A DNA stretch of 64,000 nucleotides from Candidatus Onthoplasma sp. (GCA_045637825.1 JAZUAD010000021.1:84-64083), one strand, 5' to 3'; numbered from the stretch's first letter, positions 14,596 through 48,959 are shown. Translations and numbers: made by a program. The notes: generated by a model not told the origin, from the sequence alone.

Positions 14596-14770
14596 ATTAT
14601 CTCCTAAAATAAAACAAATAGTATTTGCTAAATCTTTATTAACTATATTATATAAAAAAATCATAAAAAATGCAAAGATTATTACGTTTTTATATAATTA
14701 TTTATAAATTTTATAGGGTTTGATTAATAAATTTTGTCAAATTTGTGCAAATTTAATAAAATCTTAATAA

Positions 14771-14835
14771 ATTAGTTAAATAAATTAGTTAAATAAATTA
14801 GTTAAATAAATTAGTTAAATAAATTAGTTAAATAA
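14771..14835. repeat. Perfect tandem repeat, 13 bp x 5 (attagttaaataa), with partial units on both flanks
   Basis: Read directly: five identical consecutive 13-mers at 14771-14835. The repeat abuts the -35 box of the next gene. Confidence 0.95.
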
Positions 14836-14837
14836 AT

Positions 14838-14866
14838 TTGACTTAAAAAAACATATTTGCTATCAT
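14838..14866 (+). promoter_or_regulatory. Sigma-A-type promoter of the TM2-domain membrane protein gene
   Basis: TTGACT at 14838-14843, 17-nt spacer, TATCAT at 14861-14866, RBS aaggaggg downstream. Confidence 0.6.
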
Positions 14867-32800: not shown

Positions 32801-34261
32801 ATGGATTTACAACAACTAGTACAAGATTTTAAATTTAATGGGATTAAAAATTATAAGAATGTAGATATACAAAATTTAACAAATTCTAGTACGCAAAACA
32901 CAAATCAAGCGCTATATTTTTGCCTAAAAGGTAGCAAAGTTGATGGACACGAATATGCTAAGGAGGCGATGGATGATGGCGCAGTTTGTTTGGTGGTAGA
33001 GAAATATTTGGATTTACCTATAACTCAAATATTGGTTGACAATGCTAGAAGTGCAATGTCAGCCCTTAGTGCTAAGTTTTATGAGTTTGACAAATCTAAA
33101 ATAAAGTTTATAGGAGTTACAGGAACTAACGGAAAAACCACCACCGCTTTTATTACTAGGCACATTCTTAAAAATTTAGGCAAACGTGTAGGAATGATAG
33201 GCACTGAGGGTACCTATATGGGGGATATTAAAATACCTTCAGCTCTTACAACTCCAGACCCTATTAATTTACATAAAATCATACACGAAATGGATTTAAA
33301 CGGTATTGAATATGTGGTTATGGAAGTGTCGGCACACGCTATTGCATTAAACAAAATTGATAGCATTATGTACGATGTGGTAGGAATTACTAATATTACT
33401 CAAGACCATCTTGACTATTTTAATACTATGGAAAATTATGCAAGGGCAAAAGCTGAATTGTTTACATATAAACACGCACAAAAAGCCATAATAAATATCG
33501 ATGACAAATATACTAGGGCGGTATTAAAAAAATGCGATATTGAACATTCTACGTTATCTTTAAATAGACCTGCTGATATTAGTTTAGAACAAAGTGATTT
33601 AAAGCCAGATTCAACGCAAGCAATCATAACCATTAATAACAAGCAATATATGTTAAATAGTTCATTGGTTGGTGAATATAATCTTGCTAATACTCTTATG
33701 GCTATAGGGTTTTGCAATGTTCTGGGCTTTGAAGTTAGTAATATTTTACAGGCGCTTAATAGTTCGCAGTTGATAGTTCCAGGACGATTAAATTTAGTAA
33801 AAACACCTAAAAACAATACGGTTGTTATTGACTATGCTCACACGCCTGATGGGATTGAAAAAGTGTTGACTACCATCAACCAAATCAAAACAGGTAAATT
33901 AATAGTGGTGTTTGGCTGTGGTGGCGGTAGAGATAGCAGTAAACGAGCCTTAATGGGTGACATCGCTACAAAACTTGGAGATTATGTAGTTATAACTAGC
34001 GATAATCCAAGAAATGAAAATCCTTATCAAATTATTGCAGATATTAATAAAGGAACAGCTAATAGAAAAAATTGTGTAAATATTGCAGATAGAACAAGTG
34101 CTATTAATTATGCTTTGGCTATATCAAATGAGGGAGATATAATAGCAATATTGGGTAAGGGTAATGAAGCATATCAAGAGATTAAGGGAACAAAATATCC
34201 GTTTAGCGATTATCAGGCGGTAGATAATTATTTTAATAACAAACAAGAATATATTAAATAG
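32801..34261 (+). CDS. murE: UDP-N-acetylmuramoyl-L-alanyl-D-glutamate--2,6-diaminopimelate ligase
   Basis: P-loop GVTGTNGKTT, and DNPRNE (the DNPR motif typical of meso-DAP-adding MurE). Confidence 0.93.
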   Translation: MDLQQLVQDFKFNGIKNYKNVDIQNLTNSSTQNTNQALYFCLKGSKVDGHEYAKEAMDDGAVCLVVEKYLDLPITQILVDNARSAMSALSAKFYEFDKSKIKFIGVTGTNGKTTTAFITRHILKNLGKRVGMIGTEGTYMGDIKIPSALTTPDPINLHKIIHEMDLNGIEYVVMEVSAHAIALNKIDSIMYDVVGITNITQDHLDYFNTMENYARAKAELFTYKHAQKAIINIDDKYTRAVLKKCDIEHSTLSLNRPADISLEQSDLKPDSTQAIITINNKQYMLNSSLVGEYNLANTLMAIGFCNVLGFEVSNILQALNSSQLIVPGRLNLVKTPKNNTVVIDYAHTPDGIEKVLTTINQIKTGKLIVVFGCGGGRDSSKRALMGDIATKLGDYVVITSDNPRNENPYQIIADINKGTANRKNCVNIADRTSAINYALAISNEGDIIAILGKGNEAYQEIKGTKYPFSDYQAVDNYFNNKQEYIK

Positions 34262-34285
34262 TTAACATATTAAAAGGAAATAAGT

Positions 34286-35293
34286 ATGATAAAAATTATT
34301 GTGGGCTTTATACTAAGTTTTATTTTAGGCATTGTTTTAATGCCTTTGATAATTAAGATTATACGAAAATTTAGTTGCTCACAAACTATTTTGGAATATG
34401 TAGAGGAACACAAATCCAAACAAGGTACGCCAACAATGGGTGGGGTAGTATTTTTCATATCAACCCTACTAATAGTGGTGTGCCTGATGGATTATAGCAC
34501 CGAACTAGCAATGGCTTTGGGGGTTGGACTGGCCTTTGCTATAATTGGATTTATGGACGATTTTATCAAGGTAAAGTTTAAACAGAATTTAGGTCTTAGA
34601 CCGTATCAAAAAATTATTGGACAAGTAGGTGTTGCGTTAATACTTGCCGTATACATATATTTTTGGTCACCTAATAAGGGGATAATATATTTGCCCTTTA
34701 CCTTTAAAGCAATAGATTTAGGAATATGGATAATTCCTTTAGTTATAATAGTTTGTTTAGGTGCAACTAATAGCGTAAACTTAACTGATGGGTTAGATGG
34801 CTTGGCTGGTGGTGTAAGTGTAATATATAGCGGAATATTTATTGCTTTGATTACAATTTTTTCAACTCTTGCCTTTAAAAATGGCGAATTGGATAGTTTT
34901 GTAACTATGTATAAGGATATGGCACTACTGCTTGCAATTTTTATGGGTAGCATCATAGCTTTTTTGATATTTAATACTAATAAGGCAAGTATATTTATGG
35001 GAGATGTAGGTTCTCTTGGTATTGGAGGACTATTTGCCTCCAGTGCTTGTATAATGGGTTTTGAATTTATGCTTGCAATAGTGGGCGTTATGTTTGTAGT
35101 ATCGGCCTTGTCAGTAATACTGCAAGTATTGTATTTCAAAAAAACAAAAGGTAAACGTATATTTAAAATGGCTCCACTTCATCATCACTTTCAAATGTGT
35201 AGGCATAGTGAGGCAAAAATAGGTTATATTTACCAAACAATAACACTAATGATAGGACTTGTTGTAATTCTTTTAACTTTGCTTTTTATCTAA
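34286..35293 (+). CDS. mraY: Phospho-N-acetylmuramoyl-pentapeptide transferase
   Basis: Motifs KxGTPTMGG, NSVNLTDGLDGLA, MGDVGSLGIGG, PLHHHF. Confidence 0.95.
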   Translation: MIKIIVGFILSFILGIVLMPLIIKIIRKFSCSQTILEYVEEHKSKQGTPTMGGVVFFISTLLIVVCLMDYSTELAMALGVGLAFAIIGFMDDFIKVKFKQNLGLRPYQKIIGQVGVALILAVYIYFWSPNKGIIYLPFTFKAIDLGIWIIPLVIIVCLGATNSVNLTDGLDGLAGGVSVIYSGIFIALITIFSTLAFKNGELDSFVTMYKDMALLLAIFMGSIIAFLIFNTNKASIFMGDVGSLGIGGLFASSACIMGFEFMLAIVGVMFVVSALSVILQVLYFKKTKGKRIFKMAPLHHHFQMCRHSEAKIGYIYQTITLMIGLVVILLTLLFI

Positions 35294-35331
35294 AAGTTAT
35301 AATTGCTAATTAATTTTAATATATATATTTT

Positions 35332-36432
35332 ATGATTAAGTCCTACAAAAATTCAATTATAATAGTAGTTTGTACAATAGTTTTGGTTAGCGTAGGGGTG
35401 ATTATGGTGTATAGTGCCAGTAAATACTCTGCCAACCTTAATTATGGTAATAAATATTTTTATATGACCAAGCAGTTGGTTGGTGCAGTGTTAGGATTAG
35501 GTGGTATGATTGCTACATCATTAATCAACCATAAGATATATAAAAAGTTTTATATATTAGCATATATAATAGGACTGGTTTTATTGTCGTTATTGTTTAT
35601 TCCAGGACTTGCCAAGACGAGTTATGGGGCAACTAGATGGATAAATTTGGGCTTTTTTACTATTCAACCTAGTGAAATTGCAAAGTTTTGCTTAGTATTG
35701 TTTTTAAGTGTGGCATTGACTAGAGGTAAAGATATTAATAAACCTAGTAAATTATTAGGGATAATATTTGCTGGAGTATTATATTGCGTACTTATTATGC
35801 TTGAGCCAAATATGTCAATTACAATATGTGTAGGACTTACATTGGTGGTAATGCTATTTATTGGCGGGCTTAATATTAAAACCTTTGCAATAGGGACTAT
35901 ACCGATTATTTTATTAGGTGTGGGGCTTGTAATGTTGGAGCCATATCGTATGAAGCGAATAATTGCCTTTATTGACCCCTGGCAAAATCCACTAGAGGAG
36001 GGTTATCAATTAATTCAATCTTTATATGCAATATCCAGTGGAGGATTGTTTGGTGTGGGGCTAGGTAACAGCCGTCAAGCACAATTATTTTTGCCTTTTG
36101 CTGAAAGTGATTTTATATTTTCCATAATTTGTGAAGAACTTGGCTTTATAGGTGGAGGAGCAATACTTTTAACTTATTTAATATTAATAATAACAATAAT
36201 TAAAGTAGGAATTAAGGCAAAAGATAATTATTCCAAGTTTCTGTGTATAGGTATTGCTTGTGTTTTAGGAATTCAAACAATGCTCAACATCTGTGTTGTC
36301 TCTGGCTCAATTCCGCCAACAGGCCTGCCACTTCCGTTCATTTCCGCAGGGTCAACAAGTTTGCTAGTTTTTATGAGTGCGATCGGGGTGGTTTTAAATG
36401 TTGATAAACAATCTAGAAAAGGTGTAATTTAA
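35332..36432 (+). CDS. ftsW: SEDS-family peptidoglycan glycosyltransferase FtsW/SpoVE
   Basis: 10-TM SEDS protein with RWINLGFFTIQPSE, ESDFIFS and the C-terminal PPTGLPLPFISAGSTS motif. Confidence 0.9.
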   Translation: MIKSYKNSIIIVVCTIVLVSVGVIMVYSASKYSANLNYGNKYFYMTKQLVGAVLGLGGMIATSLINHKIYKKFYILAYIIGLVLLSLLFIPGLAKTSYGATRWINLGFFTIQPSEIAKFCLVLFLSVALTRGKDINKPSKLLGIIFAGVLYCVLIMLEPNMSITICVGLTLVVMLFIGGLNIKTFAIGTIPIILLGVGLVMLEPYRMKRIIAFIDPWQNPLEEGYQLIQSLYAISSGGLFGVGLGNSRQAQLFLPFAESDFIFSIICEELGFIGGGAILLTYLILIITIIKVGIKAKDNYSKFLCIGIACVLGIQTMLNICVVSGSIPPTGLPLPFISAGSTSLLVFMSAIGVVLNVDKQSRKGVI

Positions 36433-36446
36433 AAATTTTATTTAAG

Positions 36447-36493
36447 AATGTATGCAAATTGCAATCAAGGTGTATACATTTTTATTTTTTTGT
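36447..36493 (+). terminator. Intrinsic terminator after ftsW (cassette module, copy 0)
   Basis: 10-bp stem aatgtatgca/tgtatacatt (one G-U pair), 14-nt loop, then TTTTTATTTTTTT. Confidence 0.65.
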
Positions 36494-36501
36494 GTTATAC
36501 T
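36493..36501 (+). promoter_or_regulatory. Extended -10 promoter (TGTTATACT) for the first HD cargo gene
   Basis: TGn + TATACT directly after the terminator T-run and ~24 nt before the ATG. The same arrangement recurs in all four units. Confidence 0.45.
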
Positions 36502-36524
36502 TGTTTTTAACAAGGAGATTTTCA

Positions 36525-37190
36525 ATGAAACAAGTTGAAGAAATTATAAATAAATTAAGAAATAAAGTTGAAGAATATTTTAGCAAAGATGCTAGTGGAC
36601 ATAATATAGACCATTTAGAAAGAACATTAAAATATGCTTTATATTTACAATCTAAAGAAGGTGGAGATATTATTGTTGTGGCTACATCTGCTTTTATTCA
36701 TGACATACATAGAATTTTGGGCGCTGAACAAAATAAGTTTGTTTCGCCAAAAGAAAGTTTACCTGTTGTTGAACAGTTTTTAGATGAAATTGAATTAACA
36801 CCAAAACAAAGAGAACATATATTATTTGCTATTGAACACCATGAAGAATATTCTTTTGGTGAAGGTGGTGTTAATGTTCAAGATATTGAAAGTAAAATTT
36901 TACAAGATGCAGATAATTTAGATGCGATTGGTGCAGTTGGGATTGTTAGAACTTTCAAATATGGAATGGCTCATAATGTAGTTGATTATGACCCAAGCGT
37001 TCCTTTATATCAAAATGAATATAACGAGAGTAAAGAAGATGCATCAACAATTCATCATATCAATAATAAACTTTTAAGATTGGGTGAACACATGAACACT
37101 AAAACTGCTAAAAGGTTGGCAAAAGAAAAAATAAAATTAATGAAAGATTTTATGGATATGTATATTGAAGAAGTTGTTGGAAAGGTTTAA
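36525..37190 (+). CDS. HD-domain phosphohydrolase, YpgQ/YedJ-like (putative (d)NTP pyrophosphohydrolase); cassette cargo 1
   Basis: Motifs SGHNIDHLERT ... AFIHDIHR ... HHEE ... LQDADNLDAIGA (H..H, HD, D pattern). RBS aaggaga lies before the ATG at 36525. The upstream part of the listed ORF (from 36459) overlaps the terminator and promoter. Confidence 0.75.
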   Translation: MKQVEEIINKLRNKVEEYFSKDASGHNIDHLERTLKYALYLQSKEGGDIIVVATSAFIHDIHRILGAEQNKFVSPKESLPVVEQFLDEIELTPKQREHILFAIEHHEEYSFGEGGVNVQDIESKILQDADNLDAIGAVGIVRTFKYGMAHNVVDYDPSVPLYQNEYNESKEDASTIHHINNKLLRLGEHMNTKTAKRLAKEKIKLMKDFMDMYIEEVVGKV

Positions 37191-37213
37191 TTTTTAATAA
37201 AGTATTTATAATA

Positions 37214-37360
37214 CAATAACTCGTGTTAAGAGGCTCAATCCCGCCAACAGGGTTGCCGTTGCCATTTATATCTGCCGGCTCAACAAGTTTGCTTGTTTTT
37301 ATGAGTGCGATTGGTGTGGTGCTGAATGTGGATAGGCAATCACGGGAGAATAAACTTTAA
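37214..37360 (+). pseudogene. Displaced ftsW 3'-end fragment, copy 1 (43 codons, intact frame, no start codon)
   Basis: 37232-37360 translates to GSIPPTGLPLPFISAGSTSLLVFMSAIGVVLNVDRQSRENKL*. The first 38 codons match the FtsW C-terminus with one conservative change and 19 synonymous codon differences. A TAA lies 4 codons upstream. Confidence 0.85.
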
Positions 37361-37370
37361 TTTTTTAGTA

Positions 37371-37417
37371 AAAATGTATACAATTTGTAATGAAAAAGTA
37401 GACATTTTTATTTTTTT
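37371..37417 (+). terminator. Hairpin terminator of cassette module, copy 1
   Basis: Arms aaaatgtatac/gtagacatttt (1 mismatch), then TTTTTATTTTTTT. Homologous to the ftsW terminator. Confidence 0.55.
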
Positions 37418-37418
37418 G

Positions 37419-37427
37419 TGTTATAAT
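37419..37427 (+). promoter_or_regulatory. Extended -10 promoter TGTTATAAT for cargo 2
   Basis: TGnTATAAT directly after the T-run. RBS aggaga downstream. Confidence 0.5.
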
Positions 37428-37449
37428 GTAAGCACAGGAGAAGAATGAT

Positions 37450-37686
37450 ATGGGATTTTTTGATATTTTTAAAAAGAAGAAAGAAGAGTGGTATAAGCAA
37501 AAAGAAACAGATATTATTTGGTGGTTAGATAATAGCGATAAAATTGGAGAGCATGTGTTTAGTTTTGATAAGAAAAAAAAGTTTAATTTGTTTAGAGATT
37601 ATCCTTATCAATTAACTGCTGAGCAAAAAGAAATATTTGATAAAGAAAATCCGTATTGGGCAGATTTTTTTAAAGATAGAAAATAA
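37450..37686 (+). CDS. Hypothetical 78-aa protein (Trp/Lys-rich, no TM helix); cassette cargo 2
   Basis: ORF with RBS aggaga 8 nt upstream and its own promoter module. I recognise no family. Confidence 0.5.
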   Translation: MGFFDIFKKKKEEWYKQKETDIIWWLDNSDKIGEHVFSFDKKKKFNLFRDYPYQLTAEQKEIFDKENPYWADFFKDRK

Positions 37687-37732
37687 TGTAAAGAGCAATA
37701 ATTTTGCTTTTTTTATTAAAAATTTTATAATT

Positions 37733-37975
37733 CAATAACTGATGTTAAGAGGATCAATTCCACCAACAGGATTACCCGCGTCAAAACTCTCGTTTATTTT
37801 GCTTGTGCGCGCAGTTGCTTGCACATTCGCTTAACACTCGGTTTTTCCTTTCCACTTCAAAGCTTTCGCTTTGTGGGGTCCCCAAAAGTCTGCCGGATCA
37901 ACAAGTTTGCTGGTTTTCATATTTGCTATCGGAGTTGTTTTTAATATAAATAGGAAGAGCAAGAAAAACAATTAA
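37733..37975 (+). pseudogene. Displaced ftsW 3'-end fragment, copy 2, interrupted by a 111-bp insertion
   Basis: GSIPPTGLP (37751-37777), then the insertion, then SAGSTSLLVFIFAIGVVFNINRKSKKNN* (37889-37975). The four codons for LPFI are missing. Confidence 0.8.
37778..37888. other. 111-bp GC-richer insertion of unknown nature inside fragment copy 2
   Basis: About 47% G+C by manual count, against an AT-rich background. The (-) strand folds as CCAC-AAAGC-GAAA-GCUUU-GAA-GUGG (GNRA-capped hairpin). Contains the GGGGTCCCC palindrome. Confidence 0.4.
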
Positions 37976-38013
37976 ATTTTTTGAATAAGTGTATACACTT
38001 TTTGTTTTGTATA

Positions 38014-38022
38014 TGTTATAAT
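38014..38022 (+). promoter_or_regulatory. Extended -10 promoter TGTTATAAT for cargo 3
   Basis: Follows the short hairpin aagtg-tata-cactt plus T-run (37987-38008). RBS agaggg precedes the ATG at 38045. Confidence 0.5.
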
Positions 38023-38044
38023 AAAATTGTTAGAGGGCATTGTT

Positions 38045-38764
38045 ATGAGCATAAAAAACGAAAGAGAAGAAAAAATTCTTCAAATATCAGTTAGAAAAAA
38101 GTTTAGTTATAAAGATATTTTAAAAAGCAATTATTATAAAGAAACATATACTAAAATCGAAGAGCTTAAGAAAGATTTTTATGTTAACCATGGCTTTATT
38201 CATATTAAGAATGTAACTAATAATGCTGAATATTTAGCAGATCTTTTTTGCCTTGATTCAAGACAGAAAGAATTGTTACTTATAGCAAGTGTGTTGCATG
38301 ATATTGGTTATCTAAAAGGGAGAGAAAACCATGACGTAAATGGCAGTGTATTGGCTTATGAATATCTTAAAAATCTAATGCCTAAAGAAGATGTTGATTT
38401 AATTTGCAGTGCAATAGCAAGTCATGGTGGCAAAAATGATGAAGATTATATTAACCCTATTTCAATGTGTTTGATTTTAGCAGACAAATTGGATTTTACT
38501 AAAGATAGATATAAAGATGATGGAAAAGAACATGTTAATCTACCATTGTTTTTAAGTATAGAAAAAATTATGTTAACAAAAGATGATATAAATAATTTTA
38601 CACTTAAAATTTACACTACAAGCAAGCCTCTATTCGATAATTTAGATGACAATTATTATTTTAAAAAACTCTTTGAGGTTTTAAGAAAATTAAAAAATAT
38701 TTGCAATTATGATGTTAAAATTAATTTTATTGATTGCAAAAAAGATTTTGAATGCAATAGCTGA
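38045..38764 (+). CDS. HD-domain phosphohydrolase unrelated to cargo 1; cassette cargo 3
   Basis: Motifs HGFIHIKNV ... LHDIGY ... NHDVNGS ... ASHGG ... ILADKLDF. The ATG at 38045 follows RBS agaggg. Confidence 0.7.
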   Translation: MSIKNEREEKILQISVRKKFSYKDILKSNYYKETYTKIEELKKDFYVNHGFIHIKNVTNNAEYLADLFCLDSRQKELLLIASVLHDIGYLKGRENHDVNGSVLAYEYLKNLMPKEDVDLICSAIASHGGKNDEDYINPISMCLILADKLDFTKDRYKDDGKEHVNLPLFLSIEKIMLTKDDINNFTLKIYTTSKPLFDNLDDNYYFKKLFEVLRKLKNICNYDVKINFIDCKKDFECNS

Positions 38765-38893
38765 TGGGTGGTCCAATCGACAGGATTACTATTGACCTTC
38801 ATTAGTGTTGGCTCAACAAGTTTGCTAGTATTTATGAGTGTAATAGGGGTTGTACTAAATGTTGATAGACAAAGTAGGAAAAGTAAGATTTAA
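38755..38893 (+). pseudogene. Displaced ftsW 3'-end fragment, copy 3 (most degenerate; overlaps the stop of cargo 3)
   Basis: Encodes VVQSTGLLLTFISVGSTSLLVFMSVIGVVLNVDRQSRKSKI*, against native VVSGSIPPTGLPLPFISAGSTS... It has a ~4-codon deletion and several replacements. Confidence 0.7.
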
Positions 38894-38904
38894 AAAATGT
38901 AAAC

Positions 38905-38937
38905 AAAATGTATGCGTATTGTATACATTTTTTTGTT
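38905..38937 (+). terminator. Hairpin terminator of cassette module, copy 3
   Basis: Arms aaaatgtatgc/gtatacatttt (one G-U pair), 5-nt loop, T-run. Confidence 0.55.
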
Positions 38938-38941
38938 TATA

Positions 38942-38950
38942 TGATATAAT
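38942..38950 (+). promoter_or_regulatory. Extended -10 promoter TGATATAAT upstream of the dual-HEPN gene
   Basis: TGnTATAAT directly after the T-run. A second TGTATAAT lies near 39026. Confidence 0.4.
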
Positions 38951-39056
38951 ATAAATTATTAATAATTAATTATTACATTTTTATAAAATAATGATTATTA
39001 ATATAAGCTATATAACTTTTGGTGTTGTATAATATTTATGTGATGGAGATTATTTT

Positions 39057-40589
39057 ATGGATGCAAACAAACTATTAGAAATTGCAGATAAAACTAAAAT
39101 GTTTGTTAAAGAATTAAACAATGCAAACAAAAAAATTGAGTTATTTAATACTCAAGAATATATGAATGAAATAATGCAATATAAAACCTATGAAGCAAGA
39201 AGTTCTTTTTTAAAAAGGGCTTTGAGAAAAGTATATAAAGAAGTATATAATGTTGTACATAATTTTACAAAACAGGACTCGATAGAAGTATTGTTGCCAT
39301 TATCGCTAAATTGCTACAATCAAGATTGGGATTATGTTACCAAGGCAATACAAGATAGATATAATGATCCTAATGATTTTATACATAGCATAACTAATGG
39401 AGATGGAGAGAACAGGTCAATTGAAGATATAATACAAGTAAAAAGTTGGGGACATATTCGTCCTAAATATGATGTAAATTTTTTTATAAAAGTAAGAAAT
39501 GGTTTGTCACACTCCAAGTTTGATTATGATGAAGAAAACAACAAGTTAATTATTAATATGTATCAAGGAACGTTTGTTGTTGAGTTTGATATGTACTTTA
39601 TGCACTGGTTTCCTATTAATATATGGCGAATGAGCGAACAATCGTCTTCGATAAATTCGGAACAAAGACTCTTGTTAATCAATAACTTACCTTGCAAAAC
39701 TGCTTATTCAGTATTAGTAAAAAATACTAATAGAGAATTAACCAATGCAATAAAAAGGAAATTTAGAAATGCGGGTGTTAATGCCTCGCTTAAACAATAT
39801 ATAGAAAATATTAAAACAACGTTAGATGCAGACCCAAATATAACTTTAGTAGATAAGATAGAGATATTGACTCCACTTTTATCGGTTGATGATATGTCAA
39901 AAGAATTAACTGAAAGTCAAGCAGATGCCATAGTTACGATATTTGAATATTTGGGCTTGACTGTAGAAGAGAACCAAAAGGTTGAATTATATCAACTGCT
40001 AGGAAAAGATAACGTATTATTAACTTTTTTATTAAACGATATGATGGTATCTAAAGAGATTGCTGAAGATGATAAGCGCATTATGTTATCTAGAGGAGTT
40101 GCAACCAAAATAGATAAGCAAAGCAAAAATATTAGACCATATCAATATTTATTTGGATTAATGACATTATGTGAAGATGTAAGTGAAAGTAAATTTAATT
40201 CTAACATAAAGCAATCTCCAATCCCTTATATTATGGACGAGCTTTGTACATTTGCAGATATTGCTTATTTTAATTATGTATTTAATTATTTGGCACAAAA
40301 ACTAGAACAACCTCAAGAATTAGCATCACTACCAGCTACCGATTATTTTAAAGAAAATAGTTATACAAGTGGCAAAAGTATATCTGATACATTTTACTAT
40401 ATAAGGAATTGTGTTGTACATCCTAATAGAGTAATAAAGGTTAAAGATGTGTATATACTAACAGATTATGAACGAGATGGATCTTTAGTTTTTTCTGCTG
40501 AAATTGAGTGTGATAAGTTTTTTGAACTTGCTAATTTAGTTGTTTTCAAAATGAAGGAACATAACATAACTTTAAACAACACAAATTAA
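39057..40589 (+). CDS. 510-aa protein with two RNxxxH (Rx4H, HEPN-type) motifs; candidate single-chain dual-HEPN RNase
   Basis: R147-N-G-L-S-H152 (nt 39495-39512) and R450-N-C-V-V-H455 (nt 40404-40421). Each motif sits at the end of a predicted helical stretch and is followed by a similar beta-like segment. RBS ggaga. No signal peptide or TM helix. Confidence 0.55.
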   Translation: MDANKLLEIADKTKMFVKELNNANKKIELFNTQEYMNEIMQYKTYEARSSFLKRALRKVYKEVYNVVHNFTKQDSIEVLLPLSLNCYNQDWDYVTKAIQDRYNDPNDFIHSITNGDGENRSIEDIIQVKSWGHIRPKYDVNFFIKVRNGLSHSKFDYDEENNKLIINMYQGTFVVEFDMYFMHWFPINIWRMSEQSSSINSEQRLLLINNLPCKTAYSVLVKNTNRELTNAIKRKFRNAGVNASLKQYIENIKTTLDADPNITLVDKIEILTPLLSVDDMSKELTESQADAIVTIFEYLGLTVEENQKVELYQLLGKDNVLLTFLLNDMMVSKEIAEDDKRIMLSRGVATKIDKQSKNIRPYQYLFGLMTLCEDVSESKFNSNIKQSPIPYIMDELCTFADIAYFNYVFNYLAQKLEQPQELASLPATDYFKENSYTSGKSISDTFYYIRNCVVHPNRVIKVKDVYILTDYERDGSLVFSAEIECDKFFELANLVVFKMKEHNITLNNTN

Positions 40590-40632
40590 TAATGACTTTA
40601 ACGTAAAAAGTAAATGTATCATATACTAGATT

Positions 40633-41895
40633 ATGAATACATATAATGATAAATTTATAATAGTTGGTGGTAACGAACTTGAGGGTGAGGTTATTATCCA
40701 AACCAGTAAAAACGCAGTTTTACCTATACTGGCGGGCAGTATACTCTGTGATAAACCAATGGTTATTAAAAATGTACCTAACCTATTAGATGTAAGTAAT
40801 ATGTTTGCTATTTTACGCAATCTTGGAGTAAAGCTGGATTATTTTAATAAAGACTGCTATATAGATGCAAGTAATATAAACAGTACTATGCTTAATCAAG
40901 AATTATGTAAAACATTGCGTTCATCAATATTTTTGCTAGGTCCTTTATTAGCAAGGTTTAAAAAGGCAATTATTTCTTATCCCGGAGGGTGTGATATTGG
41001 TAATAGGCCTATAGATTTACATTTAGGAGGGCTACAAAAACTAGGAGTTAAAATAACCAATCGACATAGTCTTATATATTGCGATGCTAAAGATATGAAA
41101 AGTGGGGTAGTTCAATTAGATTTTCCGAGTGTTGGTGCTACTGAAAATCTTATGATGAGTGCGGTGTTTTTAAATGGAACTACACGTCTTATTAATGTTG
41201 CCAAAGAACCAGAGATAGTTGACCTGCAAAATTTTTTAAATAGTATGGGGGCAGATATTTCAGGCGCTGGCTCCTCAGAGATTACTATTAATGGTGTAAA
41301 TACTTTACATACTACACAATATACGCCAATAAGCGATAGAATTGTAGAAGGAACGCTTATGCTTGCTACTGCAATTTGTGGTGGAAGGGTTTGTTTAAAA
41401 AACACAAATTTTAAAAATAATCAAAGTTTAATTGCAAAACTTTCGTCAGTTGGTTGCCAAATAGATACTAAAAATGATATAATACATATAACTTCAAAGG
41501 GACGGCTTCCATCTATTGATTTGATAGACACTCAAGTATATCCAGGATTTCCTACAGATTTGCAGGCCCAAATGATGGCTCTTCAAACGGTTAGTGAAGG
41601 TGTTAGTGTTATGTGCGAAAATGTGTTTGAAAATCGTTATAAGCACGCTAAAGAGTTGATTAAAATGGGTTCAGATATAATTCTTCGTGACCGGGTGGCT
41701 GTTGTTAAGGGTGTGAGTGAACTTGCAGGTGCTCCTGTAGATGCTAGCGATTTACGTGCTGGTGCGGGCTTGGTGCTAGCGGGCTTAAAAGCAAAAGGTT
41801 ACACCACAATCAATAATATCTATCATATTGATAGGGGTTATGAAAACTTTGAAAATATATTAACAAGTTTAGGTGCAGATATTAAAAGATTATGA
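40633..41895 (+). CDS. murA: UDP-N-acetylglucosamine 1-carboxyvinyltransferase
   Basis: N-terminus FIIVGGNELEGEV, and active-site Cys in YPGGCDIGNRPIDLH. Confidence 0.93.
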   Translation: MNTYNDKFIIVGGNELEGEVIIQTSKNAVLPILAGSILCDKPMVIKNVPNLLDVSNMFAILRNLGVKLDYFNKDCYIDASNINSTMLNQELCKTLRSSIFLLGPLLARFKKAIISYPGGCDIGNRPIDLHLGGLQKLGVKITNRHSLIYCDAKDMKSGVVQLDFPSVGATENLMMSAVFLNGTTRLINVAKEPEIVDLQNFLNSMGADISGAGSSEITINGVNTLHTTQYTPISDRIVEGTLMLATAICGGRVCLKNTNFKNNQSLIAKLSSVGCQIDTKNDIIHITSKGRLPSIDLIDTQVYPGFPTDLQAQMMALQTVSEGVSVMCENVFENRYKHAKELIKMGSDIILRDRVAVVKGVSELAGAPVDASDLRAGAGLVLAGLKAKGYTTINNIYHIDRGYENFENILTSLGADIKRL

Positions 41896-42773
41896 CTAAG
41901 CGAGCAGTTATTATCATCACTAGTATATTGGTGGCAATAGTTACAGTTTTAACCATATTATTGGGGTTTGTTTTTCGTGTGCGCAAAATTGAACTATTGT
42001 ATGACCAAGACTTTTGCTATATAGGCGAAGTAGATATGGTTAAAGAAAGTGGTAAATTAAAGAAAAATACTAGCATTTTTGCAGTTGAACGTGATATTAT
42101 TAAAAATAATATTGAAAAAGCATATCCTTATGCTCGTGTAAGGATTAATATTTCTAGTATGACTAGCGTTAAAATTACTCTTTCGAATCGTGAGCCATTG
42201 TATTATATTGCACACGAAATTTCACACGAAATAGTTTATTATATTTTAGATGAAGATTGTAAAATTTTGGAAATTACAACTGATGAAAATAAGGCAACGC
42301 AATATATATTGCTAGATGATGTGTTTAGCGTAACTGAGCAAACTGAGGTTGGCGAATTTTTGGATAATAAATATACTGAGGTTTGCACAAGTTTATATAA
42401 GGCATTATATTCAAATGCTGTATTAAATATTGGTGAAGATAGCGATAGTGATGGGTTTGCTGATGAAAAATATTTAGAACGACAAGATATGTATGAGATT
42501 ATCCAAAGCGTTAAATTTGTTCCAGAAAATGAACTAGGTGGCAAAAAAGACAAGTTGGTTATTAATACTGATGCTAGTAATGGATATGGAGTAAAACTAA
42601 CTATAATTGAACCACAAAAAGATTTGGATAATAAAATAAATAGGGCATTTTCGGCAATGCGCACTTTAATAAACTTGGGTGAGCAAGATAAATATACTAC
42701 AGGTTCAATTAATGTTGATTATGATTATGATAGTGATGGAAAAATAGTTTTAGTGTGCAATTATAGCAAATAA
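41892..42773 (+). CDS. ftsQ: Bitopic membrane protein in the FtsQ/DivIB position
   Basis: N-terminal TM helix, POTRA-like segment (VRKIELLYDQDF...). Start overlaps the murA stop (ATGA). Synteny with ftsA-ftsZ. Confidence 0.5.
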   Translation: MTKRAVIIITSILVAIVTVLTILLGFVFRVRKIELLYDQDFCYIGEVDMVKESGKLKKNTSIFAVERDIIKNNIEKAYPYARVRINISSMTSVKITLSNREPLYYIAHEISHEIVYYILDEDCKILEITTDENKATQYILLDDVFSVTEQTEVGEFLDNKYTEVCTSLYKALYSNAVLNIGEDSDSDGFADEKYLERQDMYEIIQSVKFVPENELGGKKDKLVINTDASNGYGVKLTIIEPQKDLDNKINRAFSAMRTLINLGEQDKYTTGSINVDYDYDSDGKIVLVCNYSK

Positions 42774-47076: not shown

Positions 47077-48354
47077 ATGGCTAAATTTTATAAATTTGAT
47101 AGTGGTTTGATGTTGTTGTATGAAACCAACAATATCAATAAATCTACTAGTATAGAAATATCCTTTGATTGCGGAGCAAGGTGTGATGGAAAAATTTCAG
47201 GGCTATCACATTTTTGCGAGCATATGTTTTTTAGCGGAACTAACAAACTGTCTAAGCAAGAAGTAACCAAAAGATATTTTGATTTTATTAAAACTAATGC
47301 TTTTACAACCAATTCTAATATAACTTTTACTGGAAGCATTGTTACAAGAAGACTTGCCGAATATTTGTCGTGCGTGCAAGATATGATATGTAATAGCACG
47401 TTTAAAGCTTCGGCAATAGAGGAAGAAAAAAAGATTGTTATTCAAGAAATAGTGCAAGCATCTGATAATCATATTAGAATTGCTGACGAATTATATAGTT
47501 ATGACATATATGAACAAGAGCATTATAAAAATGGAGTTCTAGGCAGTAAGGAAAGCGTTAACCAAATAAAAAGCAAAGATGTAAAGAATTATGTAAATAA
47601 ATATTTTGTAAAAAATAACTGTATTATTTATATTTGTAGTCCATTATCTTTTAGTAAAGTTAAAGATATCGTTAAAAAGCATTTTGATGATAAAATGCCT
47701 AGTAATAATTTGGAAAAACTTCCTTATTGTGAAAATAAGTTAATAGATGCTGAAAGAGTTACAATTAATCATAAGAAAATTGACAAGAACTTTTTATCCA
47801 TAACATTTAAGTTTAAGCGTAACGGACCTGATTTGAAATATAGGGTAATGTTGGGTGCAATTTGTAATATTATAGATGATATTAGCGATGGTTTAACCAA
47901 GGAATTACGGCTAGATAATAGCTTGATTTATGGTATGGGTTCAGATTATATGGTAAACAAAGTTAATTCTTATTTAGAACTACGTACAGAAATTTCTAAG
48001 GAAAATATAAAACCATGCTTAGATATAATTATAGATTATATTAATAGATTAAGAGCAAATGGATTTACAAAAGAACAATTTTTAAAAGAACTTGAAAAAG
48101 ATGAGTATTACTGGCAAACCAAAGTAATTACGCCAAGTAATATATTAAATATCTTGACAAGGTATCGTTTTTATGGTAAATTTATTAATGATGAAAGTGT
48201 TCATAAGCAAGTACAAAGTTTAAAGTTAGCAGAACTAAATGAAACAATGAAAGATTTATTTAATGATGCTAAAATTCAACTGTTTGTGTATGGTAATGCT
48301 AATAAACGCGACGTGTATACAATAGATCAAATTCAAAAAAAGATAAAAATGTGA
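47077..48354 (+). CDS. M16 (pitrilysin/insulinase) family zinc peptidase
   Basis: Inverted zinc motif HFCEH (HxxEH) followed by the downstream Glu region. About 425 aa, typical of bacterial M16B. Confidence 0.75.
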   Translation: MAKFYKFDSGLMLLYETNNINKSTSIEISFDCGARCDGKISGLSHFCEHMFFSGTNKLSKQEVTKRYFDFIKTNAFTTNSNITFTGSIVTRRLAEYLSCVQDMICNSTFKASAIEEEKKIVIQEIVQASDNHIRIADELYSYDIYEQEHYKNGVLGSKESVNQIKSKDVKNYVNKYFVKNNCIIYICSPLSFSKVKDIVKKHFDDKMPSNNLEKLPYCENKLIDAERVTINHKKIDKNFLSITFKFKRNGPDLKYRVMLGAICNIIDDISDGLTKELRLDNSLIYGMGSDYMVNKVNSYLELRTEISKENIKPCLDIIIDYINRLRANGFTKEQFLKELEKDEYYWQTKVITPSNILNILTRYRFYGKFINDESVHKQVQSLKLAELNETMKDLFNDAKIQLFVYGNANKRDVYTIDQIQKKIKM

Positions 48355-48362
48355 GGTGTTGC

Positions 48363-48959
48363 ATGAAAGAAAAAGAAATCAGCGCTATATTAGAGCATTA
48401 TAAATCAAATTTAGGCGAAATAGAGTTGTTGGAATACACTCCTAGCAAGGATATGCCTTTTAATCCACAACTTATTTTGTCACGCCCTAACAAACTTCAC
48501 AATTACAACATTATAGCAACAATAGGTGTTAGTGATATTAAAATGAAAGGCACTTATTCAAGTTGCGAATTTGTTATGTTGCTAGATAAAAAATGGAAAT
48601 TTAAGTTGGATAATATTAACCATAATTGGCCATTAGATTTAATACATAAAATTTCTAATATAGTATACTTAACAGATGAAAATATAGGTTATGGTAAATA
48701 CTTTATTAATGAAAACAATCAAACATTTTGTCCAACTACCGATATGGGTGTAGCATTAATAGGCGTTCCTGCAATGCTCGATACTAGATTTTTTGAACTA
48801 AAGGTAGGCAAAAAAACAACTAACTTCTTTGTGATTACCGCTGCTACACTAGATGAATTAAAACTAATCAAACATATCGGCGGTATTAACTTTATCCAAC
48901 GCTATTTATTGCCAGAAGGAGAGGAAGCGTTTATATTAAGAAATAGCAAAATAAAATAA
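48363..48959 (+). CDS. Hypothetical protein, possibly SUFU-like fold
   Basis: ~199 aa. The ATG at 48363 follows gaggtg, which overlaps the M16 stop. The SUFU-like assignment rests only on a weak resemblance I cannot verify. Confidence 0.35.
   Translation: MKEKEISAILEHYKSNLGEIELLEYTPSKDMPFNPQLILSRPNKLHNYNIIATIGVSDIKMKGTYSSCEFVMLLDKKWKFKLDNINHNWPLDLIHKISNIVYLTDENIGYGKYFINENNQTFCPTTDMGVALIGVPAMLDTRFFELKVGKKTTNFFVITAATLDELKLIKHIGGINFIQRYLLPEGEEAFILRNSKIK

Follow-up and report, generated by a model that had tools for sequence, protein, structure and literature searches.

The closest described relatives of the protein considered here are found in the HEPN pEK499_p136 family (PF18736), which consists of single-domain proteins of approximately 150-170 amino acids (aa). 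The type protein, WP_000528932.1 of the E. coli plasmid pEK499, has 166 aa and is annotated as 'HEPN family nuclease'. The family has been predicted to comprise RNases of conflict or defence systems, sometimes encoded in restriction-modification or Pgl operons (PMC3710099). Apart from the 2013 HEPN survey, no literature was found on PF18736 or on tandem HEPN proteins. According to that survey, HEPN domains have an Rx4-6H motif whose arginine is immediately followed by a polar residue (N, D or H), the motif is located at the end of helix 3, inserts occur between helices 2 and 3, and Csx1 offers an earlier example of a beta-hairpin behind the motif (PMC3710099). Here we describe a gene in a stretch of 64,000 nucleotides (nt) from Candidatus Onthoplasma sp. 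(GCA_045637825.1 JAZUAD010000021.1:84-64083; the whole stretch is referred to as the window). It encodes a 510-aa protein with two RNxxxH motifs, and this protein is very probably a new tandem form of the known HEPN family.

Several other HEPN systems resemble the 510-aa protein in one respect or another. Cas13 proteins, including the small Cas13an (429-577 aa), have two HEPN domains per chain which form an intramolecular dimer (PMC12165695). AbiF/AbiD (Abi_2) proteins are stand-alone HEPN RNases of phage defence with Firmicutes among their hosts, a role similar to the one proposed here; AbiF, with a single HEPN domain per chain, assembles into a symmetric homodimer, and the adjacent non-coding RNA (ncRNA) AbiFr neutralises it (PMC12737573). 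HepT-MntA (type VII) has an adjacent MNT gene, and Csm6/Csx1 have an N-terminal CARF domain. In eukaryotes, Swt1 contains a 'dyad of HEPN domains' in one protein, but this protein carries a fused PIN domain, and the motif in it is only partly conserved or inactive (PMC3710099). Mobile single-gene cassettes encoding HEPN proteins are also known from chromosomal integrons (PDB 3jrt class; PMC3710099).

Compared with PF18736 proteins, the 510-aa protein contains two diverged copies instead of one domain, with a middle domain of approximately 180 aa between them and an N-terminal helical extension. Both halves share with the type protein the order R-N-x2-(A/S/V)-H (RNxxAH in the type protein), strand, acidic (DG) turn, strand and terminal helix. 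While PF18736 genes are found on plasmids or in restriction-modification operons, the 510-aa gene resides in Clostridia chromosomes at ftsW. It has no MNT neighbour and no conserved partner across loci. No CARF domain, no match to Abi_2 and no homology to Swt1 were detected in the protein. The 3jrt class comprises single-domain proteins of gammaproteobacterial integrons with IntI and attC, whereas the unit repeated in the present array comprises an ftsW 3'-end copy and a promoter. We consider it reasonably likely that the 510-aa protein is a stand-alone RNase with two pEK499_p136-type HEPN copies, one intramolecular active site, built-in control and a role in biological conflict.

Two invariant motifs in a rare protein

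The gene, its motifs and the predicted domains are located in the window as follows. Residue ranges of domains and helices are from the AlphaFold2 (AF2) model.

39057..40589, + strand: gene of the 510-aa tandem-HEPN protein (open reading frame, ORF); full-length homologs at E 1e-94 to 1e-69; ratio of nonsynonymous to synonymous substitution rates (dN/dS) 0.16 in the closest homolog pair
39045..39049, + strand: ribosome-binding site GGAGA, 7 nt before the ATG, by direct reading of the sequence
39189..39638, + strand: N-terminal HEPN-like domain, residues ~45-194; helices 45-69, 72-87 and 92-101, insert, helix 140-151, beta-meander, helix 179-194; PF18736 as top match of the family consensus, below the cutoff
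39495..39512, + strand: putative HEPN motif 1, R147-N-G-L-S-H152 (VRNGLSHSKF), end of helix 140-151; R147 and H152 invariant
39639..40184, + strand: middle region, residues ~195-376, mixed alpha/beta; confidence (predicted local distance difference test, pLDDT) mostly 81-93
40185..40583, + strand: C-terminal HEPN-like domain, residues ~377-509; helices 377-385 and 389-416, insert, helix 442-454, beta-meander, helix 485-509; PF18736 and alignment of the halves by hhalign
40404..40421, + strand: putative HEPN motif 2, R450-N-C-V-V-H455 (IRNCVVHPNR), end of helix 442-454; R450 and H455 invariant

The ORF was read from the window sequence, and its ATG start is backed by the ribosome-binding site and by the N-termini of all homologs, which align no more than three residues apart. 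Re-reading of the sequence found the ORF and both motifs at the positions given in the original prediction, and each motif agrees with the published rule on the polar residue after the arginine. With the amino-acid frequencies of the 46 long ORFs of the window (18,260 aa) as background, RNxxxH is expected 0.016 times per 510 aa, and the probability of two or more occurrences is ~1.3e-4. The pattern is present in only one of the 46 ORFs, that of the 510-aa protein, and there twice. The looser Rx4-6H would occur twice by chance in ~17% of proteins of this size, and conservation is therefore the decisive argument.

The family is small. A word-indexed search of 5.8 billion proteins returned only four full-length relatives (34-38% identity), and an exhaustive profile search with HMMER through 1.84 billion cluster representatives yielded 16 clusters in all (clustered at 50% identity). 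Two further word-indexed profile searches added no new members, and family-pattern scans of JGI metagenome contigs revealed no relatives. Most of the homolog contigs are short metagenomic fragments. The alignment of 13 full-length members, 17-38% identical to the protein of the window, has only ten invariant columns (D92, R147, H152, Y404, N410, Y411, R450, H455, D470 and F479), and four of these are the arginines and histidines of the two motifs. N148 and N451 are nearly invariant; nearly all members have N behind the motif arginine, and P0008 has S or H, likewise polar. Conservation in the family is highest at the two motifs. The middle region has a nearly invariant residue as well, N223. 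The dN/dS value of the closest pair indicates that the gene is constrained and functional. Both the low expectation for RNxxxH and the conservation of the four motif residues speak against the chance origin that the original prediction had allowed for the motifs; in the homologs these residues do not vary.

Probable PF18736-type halves and the predicted fold

PF18736, which has a gathering cutoff of 26.6 bits, is the single Pfam family matched by the members, seven of 13 in number. Two of them exceed the cutoff through the region of the C-terminal motif (P0012, 32.1 bits; P0017, 28.2 bits), and five match below it through the region of the N-terminal motif (P0002, P0003, P0009, P0010 and P0020; 17.7-22.7 bits). 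The family consensus of the C-terminal half has PF18736 as its top match (26.9 bits, E 4.6e-6, model positions 56-149), and so has that of the N-terminal half (24.2 bits, E 3e-5, model positions 38-110), here under the cutoff. No other profile family was matched by either half, and the consensus of the middle region gave no Pfam match below E 0.28. When aligned to each other with hhalign, the two halves matched over motif, hairpin and helix at E 2.3e-5 to 2.7e-5, which points to an internal duplication and backs the sub-threshold PF18736 match of the N-terminal half. In a global alignment of the halves (probability 56%) D92 is opposite the nearly invariant N406, a pairing suggestive of the second conserved polar or acidic residue of HEPN domains (PMC3710099). 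Alignments of each half to a single pEK499_p136 sequence agree in layout and are weak (E 0.03-0.07), a single-sequence template having little statistical weight. Taken through the family, the claim of a single chain with two HEPN-type RNxxxH modules is upheld by the invariant motifs and by the PF18736 matches of both halves, and the assignment to a tandem HEPN family is very probable.

A first AF2 model from five sequences was poor (pLDDT 64) and uninformative in Foldseek; the model from the 13-sequence alignment is confident (pLDDT 88.4, predicted template modelling score (pTM) 0.90). In the N-terminal half the motif helix is followed by strands 155-158, 163-168 and 173-178 and then helix 179-194, and in the C-terminal half by strands 459-462, 465-471 and 477-484 and then helix 485-509. 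The helix and the strand-like segment expected around each motif from the sequence are thus present in both halves of the model, as helix, strands and helix. The order of secondary structure elements fits the description of HEPN domains in the survey (PMC3710099); Foldseek gave no three-dimensional HEPN match. The pTM value indicates a fixed arrangement of the domains in the predicted structure, and the middle region (195-376) is a possible sensor or RNA-binding module.

A number of results weigh against reading the protein as a HEPN nuclease acting in conflict. The window protein itself has no match in Pfam, NCBIfam, PADLOC, PHROGs or the sequences of the PDB. Against Pfam it has none either as a whole (E up to 1) or as halves (E up to 10), and it fails the PF18736 gathering threshold, while PADLOC and PHROGs gave neither a defence nor a phage match. 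Its membership is consequently transitive, through homologs (E 1e-94), and the N-terminal half of the family stays just under the Pfam cutoff. No solved member of PF18736 was found, so that the HEPN assignment of the family is computational. With the confident model, Foldseek detected no neighbour below E 1 in PDB or BFVD, the former of which includes Cas13, Csm6, HepT, RnlA and AbiF structures. The fold assignment is thus based on profiles and topology and not on a three-dimensional match. The location of each motif after a helical stretch, described in the original prediction, was borne out by the model; a Cas13, AbiF, Csm6 or RnlA neighbour did not appear. The profile search, for its part, assigned the two halves to a HEPN family and to no other fold, with the window protein unmatched. 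A family-pattern scan of IMG/VR found no relative. Finally, the cassettes alongside encode mostly small-molecule enzymes (HD, NUDIX, HIT, GNAT, nitroreductase) instead of recognised defence systems.

Some faint matches were set aside. When the profile of the domain only was compared with PDB sequences, the best match was ORF37 (SOX) of Kaposi's sarcoma-associated herpesvirus, covering motif and hairpin at E 0.11. It was dropped as chance, being non-significant and located outside the SOX catalytic core. The N-domain profile matched only eL30 (E 0.49) among PDB sequences, and the trace of a Csm6 CARF domain in the consensus (Cas_Csm6_CARF, 7.3 bits, E 5.2) is noise.

The ftsW-murA island and related loci

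Four cassettes separate ftsW (35332-36432) from murA (40633-41895) in the window. The 510-aa gene is in the last one, which agrees with its original description as the terminal gene of an array before murA. The order is HD phosphohydrolase, DUF7675 protein, second HD protein and tandem-HEPN protein. The 3' end of ftsW (approximately the last 42 codons and the stop) occurs four times, as the real end at ~36290-36432 and as remnants at 37223-37360, 37742-37969 and 38768-38893. Each cassette is preceded by the same module, consisting of a ~130-nt ftsW 3' remnant, palindromes of the TGTATACA type and an extended -10 promoter, after which a single gene follows. For the tandem-HEPN cassette the elements are:

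38768..38893, + strand: third ftsW 3'-end remnant, left edge of the cassette; 75% identity to the FtsW C-terminus in tblastn (E 2.5e-15); DNA repeat families D1 and D2
38922..38950, + strand: promoter-like site TATACA-17 nt-TATAAT with extended -10 TG; 10/12 in the scan plus TG; module repeated after ftsW and each remnant

The array is integron-like and made of self-promoted single-gene cassettes. The promoter claimed for the gene is the extended -10 site of this repeated module; the promoter scan as a whole was not enriched over shuffled sequences, and the support comes from the conservation of the module. A conserved cassette boundary joins TTTATAATACAATAACTG to ATGTTAACAGG. The left boundary, where TTTATAATACAATAACTG meets ATGTTAACAGGCTCAAT, is common to remnants 1 and 2 of the window and to both copies in another locus (L018), which suggests that the ftsW-end module is propagated as a whole. 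No integrase was seen within the ftsW-murA island, and no description of such ftsW-linked cassettes was found in the literature. The second remnant is split at 37777-37888 by a unique, GC-richer insertion of ~100 nt (GCGTCAAAACTCTCGTTTATTTTGCTTGTGCGCGCAGTTGCTTGCACATTCGC...), which occurs nowhere else in the window and matches no Rfam entry.

The neighbouring cassettes have contents of their own. The one at 37450-37686 encodes a 78-aa protein with DUF7675 (E 8e-34) and phrog_6473 (E 1e-30), a phage-associated protein in a chromosomal array. The cassette directly upstream of the tandem-HEPN gene (38027-38764) encodes a 245-aa HD protein with a weak, sub-threshold likeness to the HD nuclease domains of Cas3'' (E 1.4e-5) and Cas10 (E 2.2e-5), which may be further nuclease-type cargo. 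A two-gene system of HD and HEPN proteins was considered and rejected, as the HD neighbours in the window and in a homolog locus (L001) are not orthologous and the HD gene of the window is in a separate cassette. In accordance with the original prediction, there are no cas genes near the 510-aa gene, no regularly spaced CRISPR-like repeat family in the 64-kb window and no MNT gene beside it, the neighbours being two HD proteins, the DUF7675 protein and MurA. No Rfam match was found in window positions 35000-42000 (E up to 1).

The window and loci L001, L002/L003, L006 and L009 carry the tandem-HEPN gene in the variable island that separates ftsW from murA. The host loci are from Clostridia metagenome-assembled genomes and metagenome contigs, with sheep colon and buffalo rumen as the given sample origins. 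The other island genes differ wholly between loci (Imm33, GNAT-like, ABC transporter, NUDIX, nitroreductase, hydrolase and AAA_18), and the tandem-HEPN gene can be first, middle or last in the island. Two distant members (L008 and L011) are in unrelated loci. All-against-all BLAST of the neighbours within 6 kb in nine loci identified no common partner save the housekeeping flanks. In eight homolog loci no CRISPR-like repeats were found, and no RNA was detected by Rfam at gathering score. Intergenic spacers measure 23-110 nt in most loci.

In locus L009 (3400-5320) the intact ftsW is followed by the tandem-HEPN gene as the sole insert and then by a second ftsW 3' end with a terminator hairpin, which indicates that the gene arrived as a single-gene cassette. 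Two other loci, L015 (2-763) and L018 (212-1029), each have two copies of the ftsW end around one small gene, for a HIT-domain protein and a 139-aa protein, respectively. The window and L009 are 56% identical in FtsW and 25% in the tandem-HEPN protein, and the window and L001 48% and 38%, respectively. L002 and L006 share 82% identity in MurA, 81% in the nitroreductase and 58% in the tandem-HEPN protein. These similarities are incongruent with those of the flanks, and cassette exchange, fast evolution or both would explain it.

The wider neighbourhood in the window is of housekeeping nature (RecJ, RelA/SpoT, MraW, a penicillin-binding protein, Mur ligases, MraY, FtsA, FtsZ and CysRS). The order mraY-murD-ftsW is found in L001 (2207-7065) and L009 (126-3534), and in the window (32801-36432) mraY (34286-35293) is directly followed by ftsW with no murD ortholog between them. 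Elsewhere in the window, a 13-nt unit, AATAAATTAGTTA, forms a perfect tandem repeat at 14766-14838 (5.6 copies, 100% identity), and a 202-aa protein with a SUFU-like domain (E 8.7e-12) is encoded at 48351-48959 among the housekeeping genes downstream of the division cluster.

Proposed mode of action and its alternatives

We propose that the protein consists of two diverged pEK499_p136-type HEPN copies in one polypeptide, with a domain of ~180 residues without recognisable relatives between them. Each copy would contribute one R-N-x3-H motif from the end of its third core helix, and the two copies would pack against each other within the chain, as in Cas13, to give one composite RNA-cleaving site. 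The composite site is suggested by analogy, because every characterised HEPN RNase needs two motifs side by side. RNase activity is probable, and we lean, by a little, towards a site formed within one chain rather than between the chains of a dimer. There is no conserved partner gene or RNA, and control is therefore probably built into the protein; perhaps the middle domain (195-376) is autoinhibitory and keeps the site shut in the absence of a trigger. In Clostridia of gut and rumen, the gene forms a cassette of its own, with its own promoter, in the variable island adjoining the ftsW 3' end. Evolution faster than that of the neighbours, together with exchange between lineages, suggests a conflict role, either phage defence by abortive infection or that of a toxin. 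Judged from the occurrence in cassettes, the rarity, the rapid divergence and the precedent of other HEPN proteins, such a role is about an even prospect at best.

The nearest competing explanation is that the active sites are formed between chains, each HEPN domain pairing with its counterpart in a second molecule to give two sites per dimer. Most non-Cas13 HEPN proteins indeed homodimerise (PMC12165695), AbiF is a symmetric dimer (PMC12737573), and the single-domain type member of PF18736, with 166 aa, must dimerise. Nevertheless, duplication within the chain with both motifs invariant is what would be expected when the partner comes in cis, and the pTM of the monomer corresponds to a compact, fixed two-domain arrangement. 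Neither point is decisive, and we regard inter-chain sites as unlikely. A lower probability still is given to a toxin of a toxin-antitoxin pair with an unrecognised protein or RNA antitoxin. HEPN toxins are often paired with MNT (type VII) or with an ncRNA (AbiF, type III), and the gene has closely spaced neighbours of 147, 290 and 240 aa in L001, L004 and L005, the 240-aa product being an HD protein. On the other hand, no neighbour is common to the nine loci apart from the flanks, the HD proteins of the window and L001 are not orthologs, and the segment inserted in L009 is the tandem-HEPN gene alone. The short spacers of most loci leave no consistent room for a conserved ncRNA, and neither RF03085 nor any other Rfam RNA was found in the searched part of the window or in the eight homolog loci. 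The location between ftsW and murA in five distinct genomes, in spite of FtsW identities of only 48-56%, could be taken to mean that the protein is a housekeeping RNA-processing enzyme tied to the division and cell-wall (dcw) cluster of this Clostridia lineage. This is very unlikely, as the family amounts to 16 clusters among 1.84 billion proteins, its position in the island varies, L008 and L011 have it in unrelated loci, it diverges faster than its flanks and is incongruent with FtsW, and ftsW duplications enclose it as they would an inserted cassette.

Two further explanations concern the nature of the motifs. Some HEPN domains lack catalysis (PMC3710099), and the window protein has neither a Foldseek neighbour nor a direct Pfam match, so the motifs might be non-catalytic, belonging to a helical scaffold or a ligand-binding HEPN domain or resembling HEPN motifs by coincidence. 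Such domains, however, typically lose Rx4-6H (PMC3710099), while here the R and H of both motifs are among the ten invariant positions in 510, which makes this option highly improbable. A miniature RNA-guided effector of the Cas13an type, with its CRISPR array elsewhere in the genome, would account for two HEPN motifs per chain and for the size. The original prediction had called the protein much smaller than known Cas13 proteins, a statement now outdated, since 510 aa falls inside the Cas13an range (PMC12165695). Cas13 has a CRISPR array and a guide RNA, but neither was found for the 510-aa protein in the window or the eight homolog loci, nor are there cas genes nearby, and no Cas13 was retrieved by the profile search of PDB sequences or by Foldseek against PDB structures. 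In addition, the HEPN domains of Cas13an group with AbiD/F, whereas those of the 510-aa protein are pEK499_p136-like. Cas13an-like identity was accordingly rejected and is given only a minimal probability. Because the HEPN lineages differ, the tandem arrangement would be an independent, convergent duplication.

We thus favour the stand-alone RNase with an intramolecular site. In its most far-reaching form, this would be a protein-only, self-regulated intramolecular dual-HEPN RNase which arose by an independent, non-Abi duplication, converged on the Cas13 architecture and was spread as a promoter-bearing single-gene cassette by an undescribed integron-like system, which stacks cassettes, each with an ftsW 3'-end copy, behind the essential division gene ftsW in gut and rumen Clostridia, a combination that we consider rather unlikely to hold as a whole.

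To our knowledge, having both Rx4-6H motifs supplied by one chain has been thought a hallmark of Cas13 and its immediate ancestors. If the proposal is true, the family described here would be a second, unrelated HEPN lineage of this kind, without guide RNA or partner, and intramolecular HEPN dimers would be a recurrent solution. It would also be a compact (510 aa), protein-only RNase in which the on/off switch is necessarily inside the protein. No annotation exists for this family, which is very rare and occurs only in poorly studied Clostridia of gut and rumen. The stacked cassettes, each duplicating the 3' end of ftsW, may represent a novel route by which Gram-positive bacteria assemble variable gene arrays.

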